64,000 nt of DNA from Escherichia coli (lineage in GTDB: Bacteria; Pseudomonadota; Gammaproteobacteria; Enterobacterales; Enterobacteriaceae), in assembly GCF_048403405.1 (NCBI RefSeq), contig NZ_CP183129.1; one strand, 5' to 3'. Of this stretch, positions 1 through 56,966 are shown in pieces (within the stretch, counting starts at the first letter, position 1; each line of letters begins with the position of its first letter). Made by a program: the position numbers and the translations under genes. The notes under the pieces were generated by a model, which worked only from the letters and a program-made list of their open reading frames with translations, was not told where the DNA came from and did no database searches.

Positions 1-296
1 CTGGTGCGGTAATATTTGTTACCTCTGCTGTAGAGTATCCTGTTCGTCGTCGTGTACTCTTGTCGATACTCAGCTTTCTTTGTGGTCTTCTCTTTTACAA
101 ACCAACAACATCAATTCTTATCGGAATAGCCAGCATGATACCTACCATCACGCAGGACTCTTTCGAGAAAGGGATTGTTTTCTCTGCTGGCGCATTCGTG
201 TCAGCAATTGTCGCAGTGCGAATTGGTATATGGCTCTATCACCGCTCCGATAATCCACGCGACTTAATTCAGGGGAGAAAAGGCGATGGTAACTAA
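1..296 (+). CDS. 5'-truncated membrane protein in the phage lysis region (holin/antiholin-like); reading frame open from the window edge
   Basis: Frame 3 is open from nt 3 to TAA at 294-296 (track ORF 60..296 is its TTG-initiated tail). Hydrophobic segments LLSILSFLCGLLFY and IVFSAGAFVSAIVAVRIGIWLY. Overlaps the next gene start by 11 nt. Confidence 0.4.
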   Translation, partial: GAVIFVTSAVEYPVRRRVLLSILSFLCGLLFYKPTTSILIGIASMIPTITQDSFEKGIVFSAGAFVSAIVAVRIGIWLYHRSDNPRDLIQGRKGDGN

Positions 297-594
297 TGAG
301 CTTGTTTTGCTTATCACCAATGCAATTATTTGTACTGGCATAGCAATTCGCGTTGTCACATTCCGGCGTAACGGCTCTCAACATCGAAGATGGGGAGGGT
401 GGCTTGCTTATTTCCTTATTGTTGCTGCGGCCAGTATTCCTGTTCGAGTCGCCTATGCAATCTGGTTACGTACGCCAATGGCTGTGGATTTATCTGAGGT
501 CATTATCAACGCTGTCATGCTTGCCGCGGTTATTAAAACACGCGGTAACGTTGTTCAGATTTTCAAAACATCGAGGTCTAAACATGGAGATTAA
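286..594 (+). CDS. putative phage holin (102 aa, about three predicted TM helices)
   Basis: ATG at 286 with GGAG about 10 nt upstream. Hydrophobic helices ([43 protein letters not shown]) and a charged C-terminus. Sits immediately upstream of and overlapping the endolysin. Confidence 0.45.
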
Positions 595-1213
595 ACAATT
601 CCAGCGAGCTGCTGGTATTAGCGAGGCTCTGGCCGCACGCTGGTTCTCGCATATAACTTCTGCGATGAAAGAGTTTGGTATCAGAAAACCCGAAGATCAG
701 GCAATGTTTATTGCTCAAGTCGGGCATGAGTCTGGGGGCTTCACTAGGTTGCAGGAGAATTTCAACTACAGCGTCACAGGACTGGCTAACTTTGTTCGGG
801 CAGGACGTCTCACTCAGGGACAGGCCAACGCATTGGGGCGACGCGCAGGCGAACCACCATTGCCACTTGAGCGCCAGAGAGCGATTGCCAATCTGGTGTA
901 CAGCAAACGCATGGGGAACAATGCCCCCGGCGATGGCTGGAATTACCGTGGCCGCGGACTTATCCAGATTACCGGTTTGAATAACTATCGTGATTGCGGA
1001 AACGGCCTGAAAGTGGACCTGCTGGAGAATCCTGAACTGTTGGCGCAGGACGAATACGCGGCTCGTAGCGCGGCGTGGTTCTTCTCCAGCAAAGGTTGCA
1101 TGAAGTATACCGGCGATATTGCACGTGTAACTCTGATTATCAATGGTGGCAGGAATGGCATCGACGACCGGCGCGCGCGGTACGTCACTGCCAGTAAGGT
1201 GCTGGCTGTATGA
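584..1213 (+). CDS. phage endolysin, glycoside hydrolase family 19 (chitinase-like lysozyme)
   Basis: Track ORF 353..1213 trimmed to the internal ATG at 584 (codon 78), which is preceded by GAGG. Motifs QVGHESGGF and [15 protein letters not shown] resemble GH19 signatures. No N-terminal TM segment, so a holin-dependent endolysin. Confidence 0.8.
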
Positions 1214-1692
1214 TCTGGTCATTCGTAAAAGCATACCGTAAACAGTTGATTATCATGGCGGTGCTTGCTGTTCTGGTCATATCAGGAGTTGTTGCCTGGA
1301 ATGTGCACGGCAGTCGTCAGTACGACGCTGGGTATGCACAGGCGAAAGAAGACCGCAAAACCGAAGATGAGAGAGTTCGTCAGCACTACGAACAGGAGAA
1401 ATCGATCAATGAACGTGAAGCGCAGCAGAGGATCGACCAGGCGCGCAATGATGCTCTTGATGCTGCCGCTCGCGCTGGCCGGTTGCAGCAACAGCTCGTT
1501 GCCATCCGTGAGCAGCTCAGGCACTATAACGCCATTGTCGGCGCTGGGTCGTCAGCCGCAGACACCGGAGTTTTGCTTGCCGACGTGTTCAGCAAATCTC
1601 TCGAGAGAAATAGACAACTGGCAGAGTATGCTGACCGGGCAGCCGAAGCCGGAAGAGTCTGCGAAAAACAGTACGACACCCTGACCAGATAG
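1210..1692 (+). CDS. Rz-like inner-membrane spanin (i-spanin)
   Basis: ATG at 1210 overlaps the endolysin stop (ATGA). N-terminal TM ([18 protein letters not shown]) followed by a charged, Q/R/E-rich coiled-coil-like region. Position is right after the endolysin. Confidence 0.65.
1409..1684 (+). CDS. Rz1-like outer-membrane spanin lipoprotein, embedded in the +1 frame of Rz
   Basis: Internal ATG at 1409 in track ORF 1265..1684, with AGGAG 11 nt upstream. Signal peptide [25 protein letters not shown] followed by Cys (lipobox LAGC). Pro/Ser-rich mature part. Fully nested inside Rz. Confidence 0.5.
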   Translation: MNVKRSRGSTRRAMMLLMLPLALAGCSNSSLPSVSSSGTITPLSALGRQPQTPEFCLPTCSANLSREIDNWQSMLTGQPKPEESAKNSTTP

Positions 1693-1844
1693 CATGGCAT
1701 TTTTCATGGTACTGATTTCCGGTGACGGTATATAAAACGGTACGAGAAAAATTTATCTTTGGAAAAATGTTATCACTCAATTGGTTATGTGTGTCGTAAA
1801 TAATTGAGTGGGAATGATTTTGATCCCTGCACTATGAATGAACA

Positions 1845-1873
1845 AAACCCTCTGTTACTACAGAGGGTTTTTT
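1845..1873. terminator. bidirectional rho-independent terminator (downstream of yfgI on the minus strand, also closes plus-strand transcription)
   Basis: CCCTCTG-ttacta-CAGAGGG stem-loop, followed by T6 on the plus strand and T4G on the minus strand. A second hairpin CTTCAAG-n9-CTTGAAG lies at about 1876-1898. Confidence 0.55.
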
Positions 1874-1911
1874 ATCTTCAAGAATTATAGGCTTGAAGTT
1901 ACTTACATCGA

Positions 1912-2451
1912 TTAATTAAACCAGCTGTCCGATTTGTTCTCTTCTGCTTTGCCCACGCTTTTCATCAGATCTCGACCGCCCTCAGTCATATTCCTGTTTG
2001 CGTCAGCTTCAGATTGCACCACATCGGTTTGCGCAGCTTTGTGCTTCAGTTCCTGATCGATAAATTCGTTTTCTCGCTTAACGCGGGCTTCTTCTTTCGC
2101 CAGCGCCAGTTTTTGTTTCTGAATCTCTAAGCTGCGTAGCTCATCTTGATAACTTTGATCGCGTTTTTTGTCCGCAGAGGCTTCGGCGTCCAGTTTATCC
2201 TGACGAGCTTTCTTATTTGCCGCTGCCGTTGCCGCTCTTTTGTTAGCGGCGGCCTGGGCGTTTGCGCGACGTTGCTTCTCTTGCTGGATTTCCCTGTTGC
2301 GCTCCGCGACCCATTCGTCATGCTGCCTTTGCTCTTCATTTTTACCTTGCTGTTCCGCTTCTGCGACAGCAGAGAGTTGATCCTGCAATGATGAGGCGAT
2401 AGCCGGATAGCTTAAGGAGGCTAAGATGGCGCAAAGAAAAACTTTCTTCAT
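1912..2451 (-). CDS. yfgI: uncharacterized protein YfgI
   Basis: 179-aa track ORF recognised as E. coli YfgI (signal peptide, K/E/A-rich coiled-coil-like body). Conserved position next to yfgH. Confidence 0.9.
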   Translation of the reverse strand: MKKVFLCAILASLSYPAIASSLQDQLSAVAEAEQQGKNEEQRQHDEWVAERNREIQQEKQRRANAQAAANKRAATAAANKKARQDKLDAEASADKKRDQSYQDELRSLEIQKQKLALAKEEARVKRENEFIDQELKHKAAQTDVVQSEADANRNMTEGGRDLMKSVGKAEENKSDSWFN

Positions 2452-2466
2452 GACTCCTCCTGATCA

Positions 2467-2985
2467 TTAGCTCTTTTCAGGACATTTGGTATTTGGCTGA
2501 ATACGCGTTTCGTTATACGTCGTGGTAATAACAACGGCTAAACCTGTCGTAAACTGGCACTCTTTACCCACCTGGGTGGAGGTATACACTTTGGTGCCTT
2601 CCTTATACGTTAGAGAAACACCTTCCACTAAGGTTTTATCATTCACCATAGAACCCGCTGCCGCGCCAACAGCTCCGCCGCCAACTGCACCTGCCGTCGT
2701 TCCGGAATTGCTGCCAGACCCGACGTTGTGGCCAATAACACCGCCAGCGACTGCACCAATAAGCGCGCCGAAGGCTTGTGCGTTTCGTTTATTTTGGGAG
2801 TTGTCTACGGCAACTTTTGCGGGAAGAATGGAAATAATATTAACGGTTTTAGTTTCTTGTTTGGTATTCAGTTGAACGGTTTGATAAACATCGGCGGCAT
2901 GATCATCAGCATTTGACTGGCATCCTGCCAGAGTGAATGACGCTAACATTACCACAGGCAGAAGACATTTTTTAAATTTCATCAC
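2467..2985 (-). CDS. yfgH: outer-membrane lipoprotein YfgH (glycine-zipper)
   Basis: 172-aa track ORF. Lipoprotein signal ending in LAGC. Gly-rich zipper GALIGAVAGGVIGHNVGSGS. Synteny. Confidence 0.9.
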   Translation of the reverse strand: MMKFKKCLLPVVMLASFTLAGCQSNADDHAADVYQTVQLNTKQETKTVNIISILPAKVAVDNSQNKRNAQAFGALIGAVAGGVIGHNVGSGSNSGTTAGAVGGGAVGAAAGSMVNDKTLVEGVSLTYKEGTKVYTSTQVGKECQFTTGLAVVITTTYNETRIQPNTKCPEKS

Positions 2986-3295
2986 TATTCCTTGTTATAC
3001 ACATTACGAAAAATAAGACATTTAAGATCATCAAAAAAGGAAAGTAAATGTATTGCGTATTAAGGAATAGATTAAATTTATTAAAATTCATGTGGAAAAT
3101 AATTTATAAAAATACATCATTAAAACATATGTATTAATTTTATATTTATTTCGCAGCCAAACAGGATAAACATCAGTCAGGACAAAGACGTAAAATTTAA
3201 GATGAAAGAATATCTGCCGCTTTGATAATCCCAAAGAGCAAAAGCATCCGACAGCGAGGTGCCGTTATGTTCTGTGAAAGTGGAGAAGGTAACCG

Positions 3296-3487
3296 CTAAC
3301 GTTGTACCGGTGATTCGACGGAGAGTGTGGATTGCTGAGCTTCTTTTTTGCTCTGATGGTGCTGCCATGCACCGACGGACGAGTAGATAAAACGGCCAAA
3401 GAAGAAGATAAAGCTGATGAGCAGTACGATACGGGTCATGCGACTGTTAAATCGGTGTCGTTTTCGCATACTGGTTGCCTGACTCAC
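3296..3487 (-). CDS. yfgG: small membrane protein YfgG
   Basis: 63-aa track ORF matching E. coli YfgG with a single TM (IVLLISFIFFFGRFIY). Synteny. Confidence 0.85.
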   Translation of the reverse strand: MSQATSMRKRHRFNSRMTRIVLLISFIFFFGRFIYSSVGAWQHHQSKKEAQQSTLSVESPVQR

Positions 3488-3697
3488 AAAAGGTTCCTTG
3501 AAGTATGTCCCACGCTGTGGACGGTACTTACATTAAGGCACAACAGGACAAAATGGTCAATTCTTCGTTATGTAAAAAAGCGTCAGTGGATACATATTTT
3601 AATGTTATGGAAGTTAATTTAATTATTTACAATGATGATGTAATAATGATGAATTAACATGATAAACGTAATAATTCATTAATCAGGGTTATTTTGT

Positions 3698-3711
3698 TTG
3701 ATATATATCAA
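3698..3711 (+). promoter_or_regulatory. FNR-type binding site (TTGAT-N4-ATCAA) of the pdeF promoter
   Basis: Perfect palindrome TTGATatatATCAA, about 134 bp upstream of the pdeF ATG. A TAGAAT -10-like hexamer at about 3733-3738 places the site near -41.5 (class II geometry). Confidence 0.6.
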
Positions 3712-3838
3712 TTGGAACTTTCATATGACACTTAGAATCAATGCTCTCTATAGTGATGAATAATCATCATTCGAAGTCAGGTGGGATGCCTGTCTGAATA
3801 CACCTCCTTCAGGATGTGGGGGATTCTGCTGAGCATCT

Positions 3839-6082
3839 ATGAAACTGAATGCAACTTATATAAAAATACGTGATAAATGGTGGGGGCTTCCGCTGTTCCT
3901 GCCTTCTTTAATCTTGCCCATTTTCGCCCACATTAATACTTTCGCGCATATTTCTTCCGGTGAGGTTTTTCTCTTTTATCTGCCTCTGGCTCTGATGATC
4001 AGCATGATGATGTTTTTCAGCTGGGCGGCATTGCCAGGGATCGCCTTAGGGATTTTTGTCCGCAAATATGCAGAGCTGGGTTTTTACGAAACGCTCTCAT
4101 TAACGGCTAATTTTATTATCATTATCATTCTCTGTTGGGGCGGTTACAGGGTCTTTACTCCCCGGCGTAACAACGTTTCACATGGTGATACCCGTTTAAT
4201 TTCCCAGCGTATATTCTGGCAGATTGTGTTTCCTGCAACGCTGTTTCTGATACTTTTCCAGTTTGCTGCGTTTGTAGGATTACTGGCGAGCAGAGAAAAT
4301 CTGGTCGGCGTCATGCCTTTTAATCTCGGGACCTTAATCAATTATCAGGCCTTACTGGTGGGCAATCTGATTGGTGTCCCGCTGTGCTACTTCATCATTC
4401 GTGTAGTGCGAAATCCGTTTTATTTACGTAGTTATTATTCGCAATTAAAACAGCAGGTTGATGTCAAAGTCACCAAAAAAGAGTTCGCACTCTGGCTACT
4501 GGCATTAGGTGCTTTACTGCTGCTGTTATGCATGCCGTTAAATGAAAAAAGCACAATTTTTAGCACCAACTATACCTTGTCATTATTGCTGCCCCTGATG
4601 ATGTGGGGAGCGATGCGCTATGGTTATAAGCTGATTTCGCTGCTCTGGGCGGTCGTGTTGATGATCAGCATCCACAGCTATCAAAATTACATTCCCATTT
4701 ATCCTGGCTATACCACGCAGCTGACCATAACCTCCTCCAGTTATCTGGTATTCTCTTTTATTGTCAATTATATGGCTGTACTGGCAACCCGTCAGAGAGC
4801 GGTTGTCAGACGCATTCAGCGGCTTGCGTATGTGGACCCGGTAGTTCATCTGCCAAATGTTCGCGCCCTGAATCGCGCGTTGCGTGATGCCCCCTGGTCT
4901 GCGCTTTGTTATTTACGCATCCCTGGCATGGAAATGCTGGTTAAGAACTATGGCATCATGCTGCGGATTCAATACAAGCAAAAACTTTCTCACTGGCTGT
5001 CACCCTTGCTGGAACCGGGTGAGGATGTTTATCAGCTTTCGGGTAACGATCTCGCGCTGCGACTGAATACAGAATCGCACCAGGAGCGCATTACCGAACT
5101 GGATAGCCATCTCAAGCAATTTCGTTTCTTTTGGGATGGAATGCCGATGCAACCGCAGATTGGCGTCAGTTACTGCTATGTGCGCTCGCCAGTGAATCAT
5201 ATCTACCTGCTGCTGGGAGAGCTAAATACGGTCGCCGAACTTTCCATCGTGACCAACGCCCCGGAAAATATGCAGCGTCGCGGGGCAATGTATTTGCAAC
5301 GCGAATTGAAAGATAAAGTCGCGATGATGAATCGACTACAGCAGGCGCTGGAACACAACCATTTTTTCCTGATGGCCCAGCCGATTACCGGTATGCGTGG
5401 CGATGTCTACCATGAAATTCTTCTGCGCATGAAAGGTGAGAATGATGAACTGATCAGCCCCGACAGCTTCTTGCCGGTCGCGCACGAATTTGGTTTATCG
5501 TCGAGTATCGACATGTGGGTCATTGAGCATGCGCTGCAATTTATGGCTGAAAACAGAGCGAAGATGCCCGCTCACCGTTTTGCCATTAATCTGTCGCCAA
5601 CCTCGGTATGTCAGGCTCGTTTTCCCGTTGAAGTCAGTCAGCTGCTGGCTAAATATCAAATTGAAGCGTGGCAACTTATTTTTGAAGTCACCGAAAGTAA
5701 TGCTCTGACAAATGTTAAGCAGGCGCAAATCACCTTGCAGCATCTTCAGGAATTAGGCTGCCAGATTGCGATTGATGATTTCGGCACCGGCTACGCCAGC
5801 TATGCGCGGCTTAAAAATGTGAATGCCGATCTGCTTAAAATTGACGGCAGTTTTATCCGCAATATTGTGTCAAATAGTCTGGATTATCAGATAGTGGCGT
5901 CGATTTGCCACCTGGCGCGAATGAAGAAAATGCGGGTAGTGGCAGAGTACGTTGAAAACGAAGAGATCCGCGAGGCGGTGCTCTCTTTGGGGATCGATTA
6001 TATGCAGGGTTATCTTATTGGTAAGCCGCAACCGTTAATTGATACGCTGAATGAAATCGAACCCATTCGCGAAAGTGCCTGA
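3839..6082 (+). CDS. pdeF: cyclic-di-GMP phosphodiesterase PdeF (membrane N-terminal domain, degenerate GGDEF, EAL)
   Basis: 747-aa track ORF recognised as YfgF/PdeF. Multi-TM N-terminus. EAL-domain motifs (DDFGTGYASYARLKNVNADLLKIDGSF). Confidence 0.93.
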   Translation: MKLNATYIKIRDKWWGLPLFLPSLILPIFAHINTFAHISSGEVFLFYLPLALMISMMMFFSWAALPGIALGIFVRKYAELGFYETLSLTANFIIIIILCWGGYRVFTPRRNNVSHGDTRLISQRIFWQIVFPATLFLILFQFAAFVGLLASRENLVGVMPFNLGTLINYQALLVGNLIGVPLCYFIIRVVRNPFYLRSYYSQLKQQVDVKVTKKEFALWLLALGALLLLLCMPLNEKSTIFSTNYTLSLLLPLMMWGAMRYGYKLISLLWAVVLMISIHSYQNYIPIYPGYTTQLTITSSSYLVFSFIVNYMAVLATRQRAVVRRIQRLAYVDPVVHLPNVRALNRALRDAPWSALCYLRIPGMEMLVKNYGIMLRIQYKQKLSHWLSPLLEPGEDVYQLSGNDLALRLNTESHQERITELDSHLKQFRFFWDGMPMQPQIGVSYCYVRSPVNHIYLLLGELNTVAELSIVTNAPENMQRRGAMYLQRELKDKVAMMNRLQQALEHNHFFLMAQPITGMRGDVYHEILLRMKGENDELISPDSFLPVAHEFGLSSSIDMWVIEHALQFMAENRAKMPAHRFAINLSPTSVCQARFPVEVSQLLAKYQIEAWQLIFEVTESNALTNVKQAQITLQHLQELGCQIAIDDFGTGYASYARLKNVNADLLKIDGSFIRNIVSNSLDYQIVASICHLARMKKMRVVAEYVENEEIREAVLSLGIDYMQGYLIGKPQPLIDTLNEIEPIRESA

Positions 6083-6120
6083 ATAATGCGGGCCGACATT
6101 TCTTGTCGGCCCGCAAAGCA

Positions 6121-9733
<3,613 letters not shown>

Positions 9734-41159: not shown

Positions 41160-41534
<375 letters not shown>

Positions 41535-41897
41535 TTATGAGAATAAATACTCATTTAAGGGTGAAAACATTTTGCCTGCAAATGATTATCAGGAAATATA
41601 ACATTATCGAAGTATTCAAATTAACAACTATTAAATAATATTAAACATTTTTAACGTAAACATTAAGAATATTCATCTTGTTATCTGTCTGTATTTTAAC
41701 CAGAATTAAATCAGTATTAGATGCCGTATGAATATCTCGAAATGTTGCTGTGTATCACATACAAATCATCACCGCAGGACCATAGTATTTACATAAGATT
41801 TGTCCCCCCGGAGGTAGTCATCGCAGCAATCGAGTAAATTAGCTTCACCACGGTATATTGTTTCCGTAGAATACCCATAATTATAAGAGAGGTTGTT

Positions 41898-54394: not shown

Positions 54395-56674
54395 ATGGAT
54401 GACCAGTTAAAACAAAGTGCACTTGATTTCCATGAATTTCCAGTTCCAGGGAAAATCCAGGTTTCTCCAACCAAGCCTCTGGCAACGCAGCGCGATCTGG
54501 CGCTGGCCTACTCACCAGGCGTTGCCGCACCTTGTCTTGAAATCGAAAAAGACCCGTTAAAAGCCTACAAATATACCGCGCGCGGTAACCTGGTGGCGGT
54601 GATCTCTAACGGTACGGCGGTGCTGGGGTTAGGCAACATTGGCGCGCTGGCAGGCAAACCGGTGATGGAAGGCAAGGGCGTTCTGTTTAAGAAATTCGCC
54701 GGGATTGATGTATTTGACATTGAAGTTGATGAACTCGACCCGGACAAATTTATTGAAGTCGTCGCCGCGCTTGAACCGACCTTCGGCGGCATCAACCTCG
54801 AAGACATTAAAGCGCCAGAATGTTTCTATATTGAACAGAAACTGCGCGAGCGGATGAATATTCCGGTATTCCACGACGATCAGCACGGCACGGCAATCAT
54901 CAGCACTGCCGCCATCCTCAACGGTTTGCGCGTGGTGGAGAAAAACATCTCTGACGTGCGGATGGTGGTTTCCGGCGCGGGTGCCGCAGCAATCGCCTGT
55001 ATGAACCTGCTGGTAGCGCTGGGTCTGCAAAAACATAACATCGTGGTTTGCGACTCAAAAGGCGTTATCTATCAGGGCCGTGAGCCAAACATGGCGGAAA
55101 CCAAAGCCGCATATGCGGTGGTGGATGACGGCAAACGTACCCTCGATGATGTGATTGAAGGCGCGGATATTTTCCTCGGCTGTTCCGGCCCGAAAGTGCT
55201 GACCCAGGAAATGGTGAAGAAAATGGCTCGAGCGCCAATGATCCTGGCGCTGGCGAACCCGGAACCGGAAATTCTGCCGCCGCTGGCGAAAGAAGTGCGT
55301 CCGGATGCCATCATCTGCACCGGTCGTTCCGACTACCCGAACCAGGTGAACAACGTTCTTTGCTTCCCGTTCATCTTCCGTGGCGCGCTGGACGTTGGCG
55401 CAACGGCTATCAATGAAGAGATGAAACTGGCGGCAGTACGCGCGATTGCAGAACTGGCCCATGCGGAACAGAGTGAAGTGGTGGCTTCAGCTTATGGCGA
55501 TCAGGATCTGAGCTTTGGTCCGGAATACATCATTCCAAAACCGTTTGATCCGCGCTTGATCGTTAAGATCGCTCCTGCGGTCGCTAAAGCCGCGATGGAG
55601 TCGGGCGTGGCGACGCGTCCGATTGCTGATTTCGACGTCTACATCGACAAGCTGACGGAGTTCGTTTACAAAACCAACCTGTTTATGAAGCCGATTTTTT
55701 CCCAGGCTCGCAAAGCGCCGAAGCGCGTCGTTCTGCCGGAAGGGGAAGAGGCGCGCGTTCTGCATGCCACTCAGGAACTGGTAACGCTGGGGCTGGCGAA
55801 ACCGATCCTTATCGGTCGTCCGAACGTGATCGAAATGCGCATTCAGAAACTGGGCTTGCAGATCAAAGCGGGTGTTGATTTTGAGATCGTCAATAACGAA
55901 TCCGATCCGCGCTTTAAAGAGTACTGGACTGAATACTTCCAGATCATGAAGCGTCGCGGTGTCACTCAGGAACAGGCTCAGCGTGCGCTGATCAGTAATC
56001 CGACAGTGATCGGCGCAATCATGGTTCAGCGTGGCGAAGCCGATGCAATGATCTGCGGTACGGTGGGCGATTATCATGAACATTTTAGCGTGGTAAAAAA
56101 TGTCTTTGGTTATCGCGATGGCGTTCACACCGCAGGTGCCATGAACGCGCTGCTGCTGCCGAGTGGTAACACCTTTATTGCCGATACCTACGTCAATGAC
56201 GAACCAGACGCAGAAGAGCTGGCGGAGATCACCTTGATGGCGGCAGAAACTGTTCGTCGTTTTGGCATTGAGCCGCGTGTGGCTCTGTTGTCGCACTCCA
56301 ACTTTGGTTCTTCTGACTGCCCGTCGTCGAGCAAAATGCGTCAGGCGCTGGAACTGGTCAGGGAACGTGCACCAGAACTGATGATTGATGGTGAAATGCA
56401 CGGCGATGCAGCGCTGGTGGAAGCGATTCGCAGCGACCGTATGCCGGACAGCCCTTTGAAAGGTTCCGCTAATATTCTGGTGATGCCGAACATGGAAGCT
56501 GCCCGCATTAGTTACAACTTATTGCGCGTTTCCAGCTCGGAAGGTGTGACTGTCGGCCCGGTGCTGATGGGCGTGGCGAAACCGGTTCACGTGTTAACGC
56601 CGATCGCATCGGTACGTCGTATCGTCAACATGGTGGCGCTAGCCGTGGTTGAAGCACAAACCCAACCGCTGTAA
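54395..56674 (+). CDS. maeB: NADP-dependent malic enzyme
   Basis: 759-aa track ORF ([23 protein letters not shown]). Malic-enzyme domain plus C-terminal PTA-like domain. Confidence 0.95.
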
Positions 56675-56691
56675 TTCATTCTTAACTCTCA

Positions 56692-56724
56692 CGCTTACCC
56701 TGAATATTCAGGGTAAGCGGTTTT
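56692..56724 (+). terminator. rho-independent terminator after maeB
   Basis: Perfect 28-nt palindrome CGCTTACCCTGAATATTCAGGGTAAGCG followed by GTTTT. Confidence 0.6.
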
Positions 56725-56966
56725 CCTGAAATATATTAGCAAAGCTTATTACTGAGTTTGCGAATAATAAAAAAAGCAGTATATAAAATATCTCGATATT
56801 ATTTTATTTATATTCATGCCTCGCATATGAAAGTTTATTCATAACAGTAAATATCTCTCCATTCTTAGTGATCTACCTCACCTTTTAAACGCGCTTGCCG
56901 AATTTTGTTATTTACTCTGACGAAAAATTGTCACGATACACGAAAGTTTTTCACAGGCGGCGACTC

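Follow-up and report, generated by a model that had tools for sequence, protein, structure and literature searches.

Two AT-rich intergenic regions beside yfgG in Escherichia coli: promoter DNA within a block mapped as H-NS coated in K-12

Published H-NS coverage and base composition of the two regions

In Escherichia coli K-12, H-NS has been mapped by ChIP-chip to an interval of U00096.2 running from 2626274 to 2628408 under anaerobic conditions and to a wider one, 2624400 to 2628963, under aerobic conditions (PMC3688515 Table S3), and genomic SELEX gives the spacer between pdeF (yfgF) and yfgG an H-NS mark (PMC3946193). On the 64-kb stretch of E. coli DNA analyzed here (the window), these intervals correspond to positions 2391 to 4525 and 1836 to 6399, with the offset checked by the FNR motif (2627088, window 3698). 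Each of them spans both the yfgG/yfgH intergenic region (IGR1) and the divergent pdeF/yfgG intergenic region (IGR2) (Table 1). The FNR ChIP-chip peak at pdeF/yfgG rises from 0.35 to 1.68 in a Δhns ΔstpA background (PMC3688515 Table S7), and an O2-dependent change in pdeF is seen only in that background (+O2/−O2 ratio, 0.23; PMC3688515 Table S11), while yfgF shows no FNR-dependent change in the wild type (PMC3688515). The same study gives the nucleoid-protein overlap at the FNR site as "None" (PMC3688515 Table S6), an entry that sits awkwardly beside its Table S3.

The original prediction held that both regions are typical of H-NS-silenced DNA, and the published data agree with it: enrichment covers both regions, although in K-12 and not in this strain, and pdeF regulation is altered when H-NS and StpA are removed. 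IGR1 and IGR2 are thus ordinary AT-rich promoter DNA in a block already mapped as H-NS coated in E. coli K-12, and the observation as such is already known, since the K-12 mapping covers both. We give a probability of roughly 85% to the combined reading, in which the two regions are H-NS-coated AT-rich promoter DNA, IGR2 serving as a divergent control region and IGR1 as the flank of a gene cassette. Base composition, gene order, conservation, H-NS ChIP-chip and SELEX, FNR binding and its rise without H-NS/StpA, and the yfgG transcription start are the direct or published observations on which it draws.

Table 1. Positions of genes and sequence features around yfgG in the 64-kb window
Feature	Positions	Strand	Remarks
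yfgH	2467-2985	-	Gene bordering IGR1
IGR1 (yfgG/yfgH)	2986-3295		310 bp
yfgH ribosome-binding site AAGGAA	2988-2993	-	Conserved in 4/4 aligned species
Predicted yfgH promoter TTTACT-17-TTAAAT	3020-3048 (-35, 3048 to 3043; -10, 3025 to 3020)	-	Conservation
Distal IGR1	3061-3295		Very AT-rich, fast-evolving, insertion-tolerant
Weak terminator-like hairpin	3249-3264	-	Just past yfgG stop; 5 pairs, then GATGCTTTTG
yfgG	3296-3487	-	Gene between IGR1 and IGR2
IGR2 (pdeF/yfgG)	3488-3838		351 bp
ORF for 50-aa "hypothetical protein," WP_000017552.1	3505-3657	+	PGAP; overlaps yfgG promoter
yfgG promoter	-35 TTGACC, 3560 to 3555; extended -10 TGcCTTAAT, 3540 to 3532	-	17-nt spacer; conservation and literature
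Conserved T-tract block	3570-3586	-	Just upstream of yfgG -35; alignment
Candidate Nac (LysR-type) site	3594-3608		Sole ATA-N9-TAT match in IGR2
AT-rich core of IGR2 with ATGATG and TAATAAT repeats	3611-3694		Composition
FNR box TTGATATATATCAA	3698-3711	+	Perfect consensus TTGAT-N4-ATCAA; ~140 bp upstream of pdeF ATG
Alternative sigma-70-like promoter ATGACA-18-TATAGT	3725-3754	+	Promoter scan
pdeF -10 TAGAAT	3733-3738	+	PMC3718329; conserved as TAnAAT; 22 bp downstream of FNR box
pdeF 5' leader, ~94 nt	3745-3838	+	Conserved blocks 3774-3803 and 3810-3838
Leader 5' hairpin	3752-3771	+	Varies between genera
Hairpin P2a	3778-3792	+	GGA 3784-3786 in loop
Hairpin P3	3803-3822	+	GGA 3812-3814 in loop
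Conserved GAGCATCT	3831-3838	+	Immediately before pdeF ATG
pdeF (yfgF)	3839-6082	+	Gene bordering IGR2

Both regions are AT-richer than their surroundings, as had been proposed, with a GC content of 0.300 in IGR1 and 0.342 in IGR2 compared to 0.524 for the whole window and 0.47 to 0.49 for the genes flanking them. GC drops further in their cores, to 0.229 at 3000 to 3200 in IGR1 and 0.258 at 3560 to 3780 in IGR2. Across the 64 kb, windows of matching length are as AT-rich in only 0.4% (IGR1) and 1.2% (IGR2) of cases, the lowest- and third-lowest-GC 300-bp windows fall in IGR1 and IGR2, and the pdeF-yfgG-yfgH-yfgI block lies below the genome in GC throughout. Among 22 intergenic regions of the neighboring 50 kb (mean GC, 0.43), IGR1 and IGR2 rank first and fourth lowest, and the uraA/upp (0.306) and ypfM/yffB (0.312) spacers are comparable; both are therefore among the lowest in GC but are not the only ones. 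TpA steps occur at 8.8 to 11.8 per 100 bp in the two regions versus 4.0 in the window (2.2 to 2.9 times the mean). Sequence identity between K-12 and the window is 95 to 100% over the segments of IGR1 and IGR2.

Long A/T runs and repeated motifs had been ascribed to both regions. The A/T stretches are found in each, uninterrupted for up to 18 to 20 bp in IGR1 and 16 bp in IGR2, with single-base runs of at most 6. The motifs belong to IGR2 alone, with ATGATG at 3632, 3635, and 3646 and TAATAAT at 3641 and 3669, and neither has a copy in IGR1 (2986 to 3295). Matches to the high-affinity H-NS motif, taken as TCGATAAATT-like sequences with at most two mismatches, number two in IGR1 (3075 and 3101) and zero in IGR2, against a background of 1.1 per kb over the window.

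Curved promoter DNA had also been suggested, and the regions might act mainly through intrinsic curvature from phased A-tracts, without H-NS. Single-base A or T runs of 4 to 6 bp are numerous (nine in IGR1 and five in IGR2), and the yfgG −35 element is preceded by a conserved T-tract, both of which would suit such a mode of action. However, AA/TT phasing at 10 to 11.5 bp does not exceed that of dinucleotide-shuffled sequences; a fraction of 0.19 to 0.48 of 500 shuffles reached at least the observed Fourier power. The suggestion of curvature thus finds no backing in helical phasing, and we consider curvature very unlikely to be the main mode of action here.

The divergent control region between pdeF and yfgG

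IGR2 is a divergent control region that has been conserved. Among 27 related loci measured, 24 have a spacer of 338 to 366 bp and the remaining three one of 312 to 313 bp, and spacer GC in those species is about 10 points under that of the adjacent pdeF. A spacer of ~350 bp with the FNR box is kept in 27 of 28 sequences, representing about 25 enterobacterial species. Within Escherichia, IGR2 is 93 to 97% identical, compared to 86 to 88% for the pdeF coding sequence. Literature on PgrR SELEX also supports a control function for IGR2.

On the pdeF side, an FNR ChIP peak and motif have been published at the FNR box (PMC3688515), which was described as class II and centered at −41.5 (PMC3718329). 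The box stands about 22 bp upstream of the −10 element, the arrangement found in class II FNR-dependent promoters, and the −41.5 spacing would put the pdeF transcription start at ~3745. The alternative ATGACA-18-TATAGT sequence has been listed as a "constitutive" yfgF promoter (PMC3946193). Inspection of IGR1 and IGR2 by eye for sigma-E, PhoP, CpxR, RcsB, and NarL motifs gave partial or nonconserved matches only, such as GGAACTT-17-TCAAT (3714 to 3742), which is E. coli specific, and none of them is relied on here. We propose that rightward transcription would depend on the FNR box and the TAGAAT element and would begin with the ~94-nt pdeF leader. H-NS/StpA lying over the AT-rich DNA would lower FNR access, leaving pdeF close to silent for as long as H-NS stays in place.

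On the yfgG side, the −35 and −10 hexamers are near invariant over about 25 species, and an identical yfgG promoter has been listed (PMC3946193). Transcription of yfgG starts at ~3524 on the minus strand, and both this start and a sigma-S ChIP peak have been published (PMC4447067); a strong ChIP-seq peak of sigma-70 falls at window position ~3520. Judging from its alignment and position, the T-tract could serve as an UP element or as a contact for an activator. A Nac ChIP-seq peak maps to window position ~3616, and Nac induction raises yfgG 138-fold (PMC5217608). The site at 3594 to 3608, whose ATGTTAT half is kept across species, is our candidate for the Nac contact. Leftward transcription would thus be driven from an extended −10 sigma-70/sigma-S promoter, expressing the Ni/Co-tolerance gene yfgG from ~3524, with a Nac-type activator input just upstream. 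Between the two promoters, the core of IGR2 is poorly kept between genera, with TTTACA (3626 to 3631) and GTAATAATT (3668 to 3676) partly kept.

The original prediction further raised the possibility of additional promoters or a small RNA in these regions, and we asked whether an AT-rich core (3061 to 3240 or 3611 to 3694) might encode a small RNA or a small protein not yet described. Length gives some reason for the idea, as only 2 of the 20 other neighboring intergenic regions exceed 300 bp, and so does the conserved TTTACA block, which has no assigned role. Nevertheless, an Rfam scan of positions 1700 to 4200 with E values up to 10 returned nothing better than E = 1; what it matched, at chance level, were eukaryotic snoRNAs and lncRNAs and unrelated leaders. 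Neither core holds an intrinsic terminator or a promoter-plus-terminator unit, neither is conserved between genera, and neither has the features of a bacterial small RNA gene. Prediction across the regions showed no excess of signals over shuffles (3 promoters versus 4.3 expected and 2 terminators versus 0.9 expected). IGR1 and IGR2 do contain promoters, namely those expected for pdeF and yfgG and a predicted one for yfgH.

As for a small protein, PGAP annotates the 50-aa ORF WP_000017552.1 in many RefSeq genomes, but the ORF is absent from the curated MG1655 annotation. It was rejected as a gene: outside Escherichia its start codon is lost and its frame broken, and within the genus about 10 of its 50 residues differ. 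The annotation is most likely spurious. The literature naming yfgG or yfgH reports no such small gene. Nothing points to a hidden small RNA beside yfgG, and we regard a small RNA or small protein gene in either core as extremely unlikely.

A different kind of element may reside in the pdeF leader, whose conserved blocks are near invariant across genera while the hairpin upstream of them is variable. In 35 of 36 sources, a covariance model recovers the leader element at one copy per locus. We raise, as a tentative and rather unlikely proposal, that the near-invariant ~65 nt at 3774 to 3838 are an undescribed post-transcriptional switch on pdeF, an anaerobic c-di-GMP phosphodiesterase; possible modes are CsrA binding, pairing with a small RNA, or a three-codon mini-ORF, AUG CCU GUC UGA (3786 to 3797). 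In the first of these, the two GGA-in-loop hairpins would bind CsrA or a similar protein, altering access to the start region, for instance by competing with pairing between GGAUGC (3784 to 3789) and GCAUCU (3833 to 3838), a pairing that could itself occlude the pdeF start region. The CsrA SELEX core is ARGGAUGU, which CAGGAUGU and GGGAUGC in the leader resemble, and other c-di-GMP enzymes are under CsrA control. A CsrA-binding leader is expected to carry at least two GGA motifs, ~10 to 60 nt apart, with at least one in a loop. The pdeF leader has two GGA motifs 28 nt apart, and 21 of the 33 distinct leader sequences present a GGA in a hairpin loop.

Structural support for CsrA-type control is weak. 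In P3, compensatory changes occur along with sense-strand G-U pairs, and realignment to the covariance model gave this hairpin modest support, with register shifts cutting the paired fraction to 65 to 69%. RNAalifold, on the other hand, found a consensus helix of just 4 bp (−1.9 kcal/mol) in the leader, and folding energies are no better than those of shuffles (z = −0.28). P2a and the long-range helix have no informative covariation, column-wise analysis being uninformative because both sides are near invariant, and those changes that do occur in the long-range helix break pairs. Also telling against CsrA is that no GGA lies over the ribosome-binding region of pdeF or within 15 nt of its ATG, and neither a site over the Shine-Dalgarno sequence or start codon nor reported binding was found. 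The second GGA is missing in C. youngae. Neither yfgF nor pdeF is named in the supplement text of two CsrA CLIP-seq studies, on E. coli and Salmonella, or in the main text of the CsrA papers searched. We hold CsrA-type control of the leader to be doubtful. If the proposal of a post-transcriptional switch were true, the leader would be a second control layer above FNR and H-NS, and it is the sole element at this locus with the potential for something new.

The yfgG/yfgH spacer and the yfgHI cassette

IGR1 forms the upstream border of yfgHI, an accessory cassette that entered between yfgG and the former yfgG/guaA terminator. Among 37 loci fetched from other genomes, yfgHI was found only in Escherichia and C. 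amalonaticus, and elsewhere guaA or other genes come after yfgG. A terminator, AAAAAACCCTCTG...CAGAGGGTTTT, follows yfgG in Citrobacter and Enterobacter and follows yfgI in E. coli. No homology was detected between IGR1 and the yfgG/guaA spacer of species without yfgHI. IGR1 and yfgHI together thus show the patchy spread expected of a horizontally acquired cassette, and related species without it have an intact empty site. In K-12, the interval from yfgG to guaA contains no integrase. Since the region is present in 5400 of 5426 E. coli genomes, the cassette is fixed in the species, which suggests that it is old and domesticated. Taken together with the gene order, IGR1 would have arrived with yfgHI at a junction whose terminator was once shared with guaA.

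Conservation within IGR1 is confined to the promoter-proximal ~75 bp, where the promoter and ribosome-binding site of yfgH would lie. The predicted promoter falls in this sole conserved block, shared by E. coli, E. albertii, Escherichia sp., and, in part, C. amalonaticus. Its match to the consensus is weak, it was not called by the promoter scan, and no sigma-70 ChIP-seq peak coincides with it among the anaerobic matches listed. We infer a yfgH promoter at 3020 to 3048 from its sequence and conservation. Outer-membrane stress is reported to induce yfgH strongly, and the predicted promoter offers an entry point for studying induction of this envelope-stress lipoprotein. At the other end of IGR1, the weak hairpin past the yfgG stop does not fold more favorably than its shuffles (z = +0.68).

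The distal part of IGR1 is 95% identical to K-12 and 78 to 84% identical to divergent Escherichia, compared to 93 to 97% for neighboring segments. It is barely alignable to E. albertii, and some strains carry an IS3 inserted at ~3287 to 3290. It is possible that the AT-richness of the two regions is a by-product of mutation bias and weak selection, with H-NS bound there because it binds any AT-rich DNA and without regulatory effect. Such a passive origin would fit with distal IGR1 evolving faster than any other segment of the locus and accepting an IS3 insertion, with the nearly equal AT-richness of other nearby intergenic regions, and with the absence of helical phasing. It accounts poorly, however, for an IGR2 whose sequence is better kept than the neighboring coding sequence and whose length holds over about 25 species, for the shift in FNR occupancy and pdeF regulation upon removal of H-NS/StpA, and for an IGR1 GC that stays at 0.28 to 0.32 in E. 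albertii and C. amalonaticus despite sequence turnover. We consider the passive origin improbable for the locus; for distal IGR1, low GC could nonetheless reflect neutral drift and not a selected H-NS platform. Under the preferred reading of H-NS-coated promoter DNA, these ~235 bp of fast-evolving AT-rich DNA would likely seed or extend an H-NS filament that holds the stress-inducible yfgHI low, and we infer H-NS silencing of yfgHI on this basis.

Comparison with described systems

The locus illustrates how H-NS coating of an AT-rich promoter can gate a perfect-consensus FNR site, and also how a small accessory cassette can bring its own AT-rich upstream flank; both are in the K-12 literature already. 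For annotation, it draws attention to a 50-aa protein, most likely spurious, that PGAP calls between pdeF and yfgG in thousands of E. coli genomes.

Set beside described CsrA-binding leaders, those of glgC, pgaA, and ymdA, the pdeF leader shares two GGA motifs in short hairpin loops, 28 nt apart in pdeF. Unlike them, it lacks a GGA at the Shine-Dalgarno sequence, has no CLIP match, and has weak structural support. With small horizontally acquired islets with AT-rich flanks, IGR1 and yfgHI have in common patchy spread, low GC, H-NS coverage, and an intact ancestral junction. They differ from such islets in that no integrase, direct repeats, or tRNA anchor was noticed. The pdeF promoter is identical to the class II FNR promoter of yfgF/pdeF (Lacey et al. 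2010), being the same promoter with no difference. Finally, the extended H-NS regions of E. coli K-12 (Myers et al. 2013, ChIP-chip; Shimada et al., SELEX) include this same locus, and the pdeF promoter acts as partly silenced by H-NS/StpA. Relative to those regions there is no substantive difference, apart from the strain and from the silencing of yfgHI, which is proposed here.

Composition of the two intergenic regions

Genes were placed from an ORF list and a megablast comparison with 5,426 complete E. coli genomes, which identified the window as E. coli chromosome, and at least 80% of 2400-4400 was present at 95 to 100% identity in 5,400 of those genomes. By the gene coordinates, the two AT-rich gaps of the original prediction are exactly the yfgG/yfgH intergenic region (IGR1, 2986-3295; 310 bp) and the divergent intergenic region between pdeF (yfgF) and yfgG (IGR2, 3488-3838; 351 bp). 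Their AT-richness was confirmed, with GC of 0.300 (IGR1) and 0.342 (IGR2) versus 0.524 for the whole window, falling to 0.229 at 3000-3200 and 0.258 at 3560-3780 in their cores. The lowest and third-lowest 300-bp GC windows of the 64 kb lie within them, and in a ranking of 22 spacers from the neighboring 50 kb (mean GC, 0.43) IGR1 comes lowest and IGR2 fourth lowest. This AT-richness is beyond chance, yet it lies at the bottom of a continuous range and does not stand apart, with comparable GC in the uraA/upp (0.306) and ypfM/yffB (0.312) spacers. Other very AT-rich 300-bp windows were 56652-56951 (GC, 0.327) and 41472-41771 (GC, 0.267), the latter mapping to the ypfM/yffB spacer, another region annotated as H-NS bound (PMC3946193). 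The long A/T runs were likewise present (up to 20 bp uninterrupted), while the ATGATG and TAATAAT motifs attributed to both gaps were confined to IGR2 (3632-3675) and absent from IGR1.

Features of the locus, in window coordinates
Feature	Coordinates	Strand	Basis
yfgI	1912-2451	-	ORF list and megablast
yfgH	2467-2985	-	ORF list and megablast
AAGGAA	2993-2988	-	Within conserved ~75 bp of IGR1
TTTACT-17-TTAAAT	3048-3020	-	Within conserved ~75 bp of IGR1
yfgG	3296-3487	-	ORF list and megablast
yfgG ribosome-binding site (IGR2)			Column conservation
yfgG extended -10, TGcCTTAAT	3540 to 3532	-	Column conservation
yfgG -35, TTGACC	3560 to 3555	-	Column conservation
T-tract block	3570-3586		Column conservation
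FNR box	3698-3711		Column conservation
pdeF -10, TAGAAT	3733-3738	+	Column conservation
Two pdeF leader blocks			Column conservation
First GGA-in-loop hairpin, CAGG[UGGGAUG]CCUG	3778-3792	+	Possible fold, invariant part of pdeF leader
Second GGA-in-loop hairpin, CCUCC[UUCAGGAUGU]GGGGG	3803-3822	+	Possible fold, invariant part of pdeF leader
pdeF (yfgF)	3839-6082	+	ORF list and megablast
ppx	6121-7662	-	ORF list and megablast

The suggestion that the gaps hide a small RNA or additional promoters found no support. An Rfam search of the locus returned no match better than an E value of 1, and a promoter and terminator scan yielded no more sites than shuffled sequences, with no promoter-terminator unit in either core. 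PGAP calls a 50-amino-acid hypothetical protein at 3505-3657 (+) (WP_000017552.1) in many RefSeq E. coli genomes, and this call is missing from the MG1655 annotation. Its start codon and frame are lost outside Escherichia, and ~10 of its 50 residues differ within the genus. Since it also overlaps the yfgG promoter, it is probably a spurious gene call.

The divergent pdeF/yfgG control region and the pdeF leader

IGR2 is a conserved and densely used control region. Among 37 loci fetched from other genomes with YfgG as the query, the pdeF/yfgG spacer measured 338 to 366 bp in 24 of 27 loci and 312 to 313 bp in the other 3, and 27 of 28 sequences carry a TTGA-N6-TCAA FNR box ~140 bp 5′ of the pdeF ATG. 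Within Escherichia, IGR2 is 93 to 97% identical, more than the 5′ part of the pdeF coding region (86 to 88%). Between genera, conservation is poor in the ~85-bp AT-rich core that carries the repeated motifs (3611-3694). The elements picked out by column conservation agree with published promoter, ChIP, and SELEX data. The pdeF promoter is a class II FNR promoter with a box at -41.5 and TAGAAT (PMC3718329), and yfgG has a sigma-S ChIP peak and a start site mapping to ~3524 (PMC4447067). A strong sigma-70 ChIP-seq peak maps to ~3520 (PMC3688515), and SELEX-derived promoters in IGR2 are TTGACC-17-CTTAAT and ATGACA-18-TATAGT (PMC3946193). PgrR SELEX binding has been published for IGR2, and a Nac ChIP peak maps to ~3616, with yfgG induced 138-fold (PMC5217608); IGR2 has a single ATA-N9-TAT match, a candidate Nac site at 3594-3608. 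A short hairpin, differing in sequence between genera (GUCCAC...GUGGGAC in E. coli, CCC-N-GGG in others), can fold at the start of the yfgG 5′ untranslated region (3508-3524, -), and high NAD capping has been reported for yfgG mRNA (PMC8040648).

The pdeF leader lies inside the predicted IGR2 interval and outside its AT-rich part. It spans ~94 nt, beginning with a 5′ hairpin whose sequence varies (3752-3771) and continuing with ~65 nt nearly invariant across genera. In 35 of 36 sources, a covariance model found one element per locus. GGAUGC (3784-3789) is complementary to GCAUCU (3833-3838), immediately 5′ of the pdeF AUG. Near-invariance between genera and compensatory changes in the second hairpin (CCUCC/GGGGG, CCCUU/AAGGG, CCUC/GAGG, and AGCC/GGCU, among others) would favor a real, undescribed post-transcriptional element; however, RNAalifold recovered only 4 bp, neither the first hairpin nor the long-range helix showed informative covariation, stabilities were not unusual, and no link between CsrA and yfgF/pdeF appeared in the main texts and CLIP-seq supplements searched. 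We consider such an element unlikely and regard this as an unexplained conserved leader. Of 33 distinct leader sequences, 21 place GGA in the loop of a hairpin. The leader also contains a 3-codon mini-ORF, AUG CCU GUC UGA (3786-3797, +), kept as AUG-CCU-NNC-UGA in most genera; at least four sequences lack its AUG (two Superficieibacter, one Enterobacter, and one MAG).

IGR1 and the accessory yfgHI cassette

Of the 37 fetched loci, only those from Escherichia and C. amalonaticus carried yfgH and yfgI; the pair is also found in S. Typhi, where it is SdiA regulated, and is lacking in S. Typhimurium (PMC11619404). In the other loci yfgG is directly followed by guaA or unrelated genes, such as a LysR-like regulator and a transporter-like ORF in K. 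michiganensis. A hairpin, AAAAAACCCTCTG...CAGAGGGTTTT, lies between convergent yfgG and guaA in Citrobacter and Enterobacter, species that have no IGR1 counterpart there, and the same hairpin is positioned after yfgI in E. coli. IGR1 together with yfgHI is thus a ~1.4-kb insertion separating yfgG from its former terminator, which also explains why E. coli yfgG has merely a weak terminator-like hairpin, with an energy no better than shuffles.

In the four cassette-bearing species, only the last ~75 bp of IGR1 before yfgH are conserved, and TTTACT-17-TTAAAT therein is a predicted yfgH promoter. The distal 235 bp evolve faster than any other part of the locus (78 to 84% identity in divergent Escherichia), with GC holding at 0.28 to 0.32 in all cassette carriers, and they tolerate IS3 insertion just 3′ of the yfgG stop codon (about 3287-3290) in some E. 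coli strains (e.g., MFDS1006657 and PI6; 1392-2648 of locus L040). No sigma-70 peak was found in IGR1 among the anaerobic rows listed in published K-12 ChIP-seq data. Strong induction of yfgH under outer-membrane stress (2025 preprint) fits a normally silent promoter, and H-NS silencing of yfgHI is putative. Within 2980-2993 (-), the annotated yfgH start, a GTG at 2985, is only 2 nt past the conserved AAGGAA; the ATG one codon downstream (2982), more favorably spaced at 5 nt, may be the true start.

When E. coli is compared with E. albertii or Escherichia sp. (loci L003 and L005), yfgH and yfgI share only 77 to 82% nucleotide identity and the adjacent yfgG 94 to 98%, while C. amalonaticus shows the reversed pattern at the protein level (YfgG, 56%; YfgH, 83%). 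This contrast suggests recombination between different alleles of the cassette. Beside yfgI, window 1-1822 is a prophage end encoding two holin-like ORFs, a GH19 endolysin (353-1213), and a DUF2514 spanin-like gene (1210-1692), and at least 80% of it is present in ~530 of the 5,426 genomes. In K-12 and the closest genome, guaA occupies this place instead. Retention of the final guaA codons (TCATTCCCACTCAAT, ~1808-1822, minus strand), with divergence beyond, places the phage integration at the 3′ end of guaA.

H-NS binding and DNA curvature

TpA steps, which favor H-NS binding, occur in IGR1 and IGR2 at 2.2 to 2.9 times the window mean. The gaps had been described as typical of H-NS-silenced or curved DNA, and curvature was not supported, as AA/TT periodicity at 10 to 11.5 bp did not exceed that of dinucleotide shuffles. 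The H-NS part stood. ChIP-chip regions in K-12 (Myers et al. 2013, PMC3688515; U00096.2 2626274-2628408 anaerobic and 2624400-2628963 aerobic) convert to window 2391-4525 and 1836-6399, a conversion checked by the FNR motif position in that study (2627088 to window 3698). IGR1 and IGR2 fall inside both regions, and the aerobic one extends over the entire pdeF-to-yfgI block. An H-NS SELEX site is also marked in the yfgF/yfgG spacer (Shimada et al., PMC3946193), and the FNR ChIP-chip peak there rises from 0.35 in the wild type to 1.68 in a Δhns ΔstpA strain (PMC3688515 Table S7), with no FNR-dependent change in wild-type yfgF (Table S9). At this FNR site, Table S6 of that study lists nucleoid-protein overlap as "None," which is inconsistent with the study's own H-NS regions. 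The H-NS reading is supported by these existing data, and the locus, whose segments are 95 to 100% identical between K-12 and the window, is already characterized in K-12.
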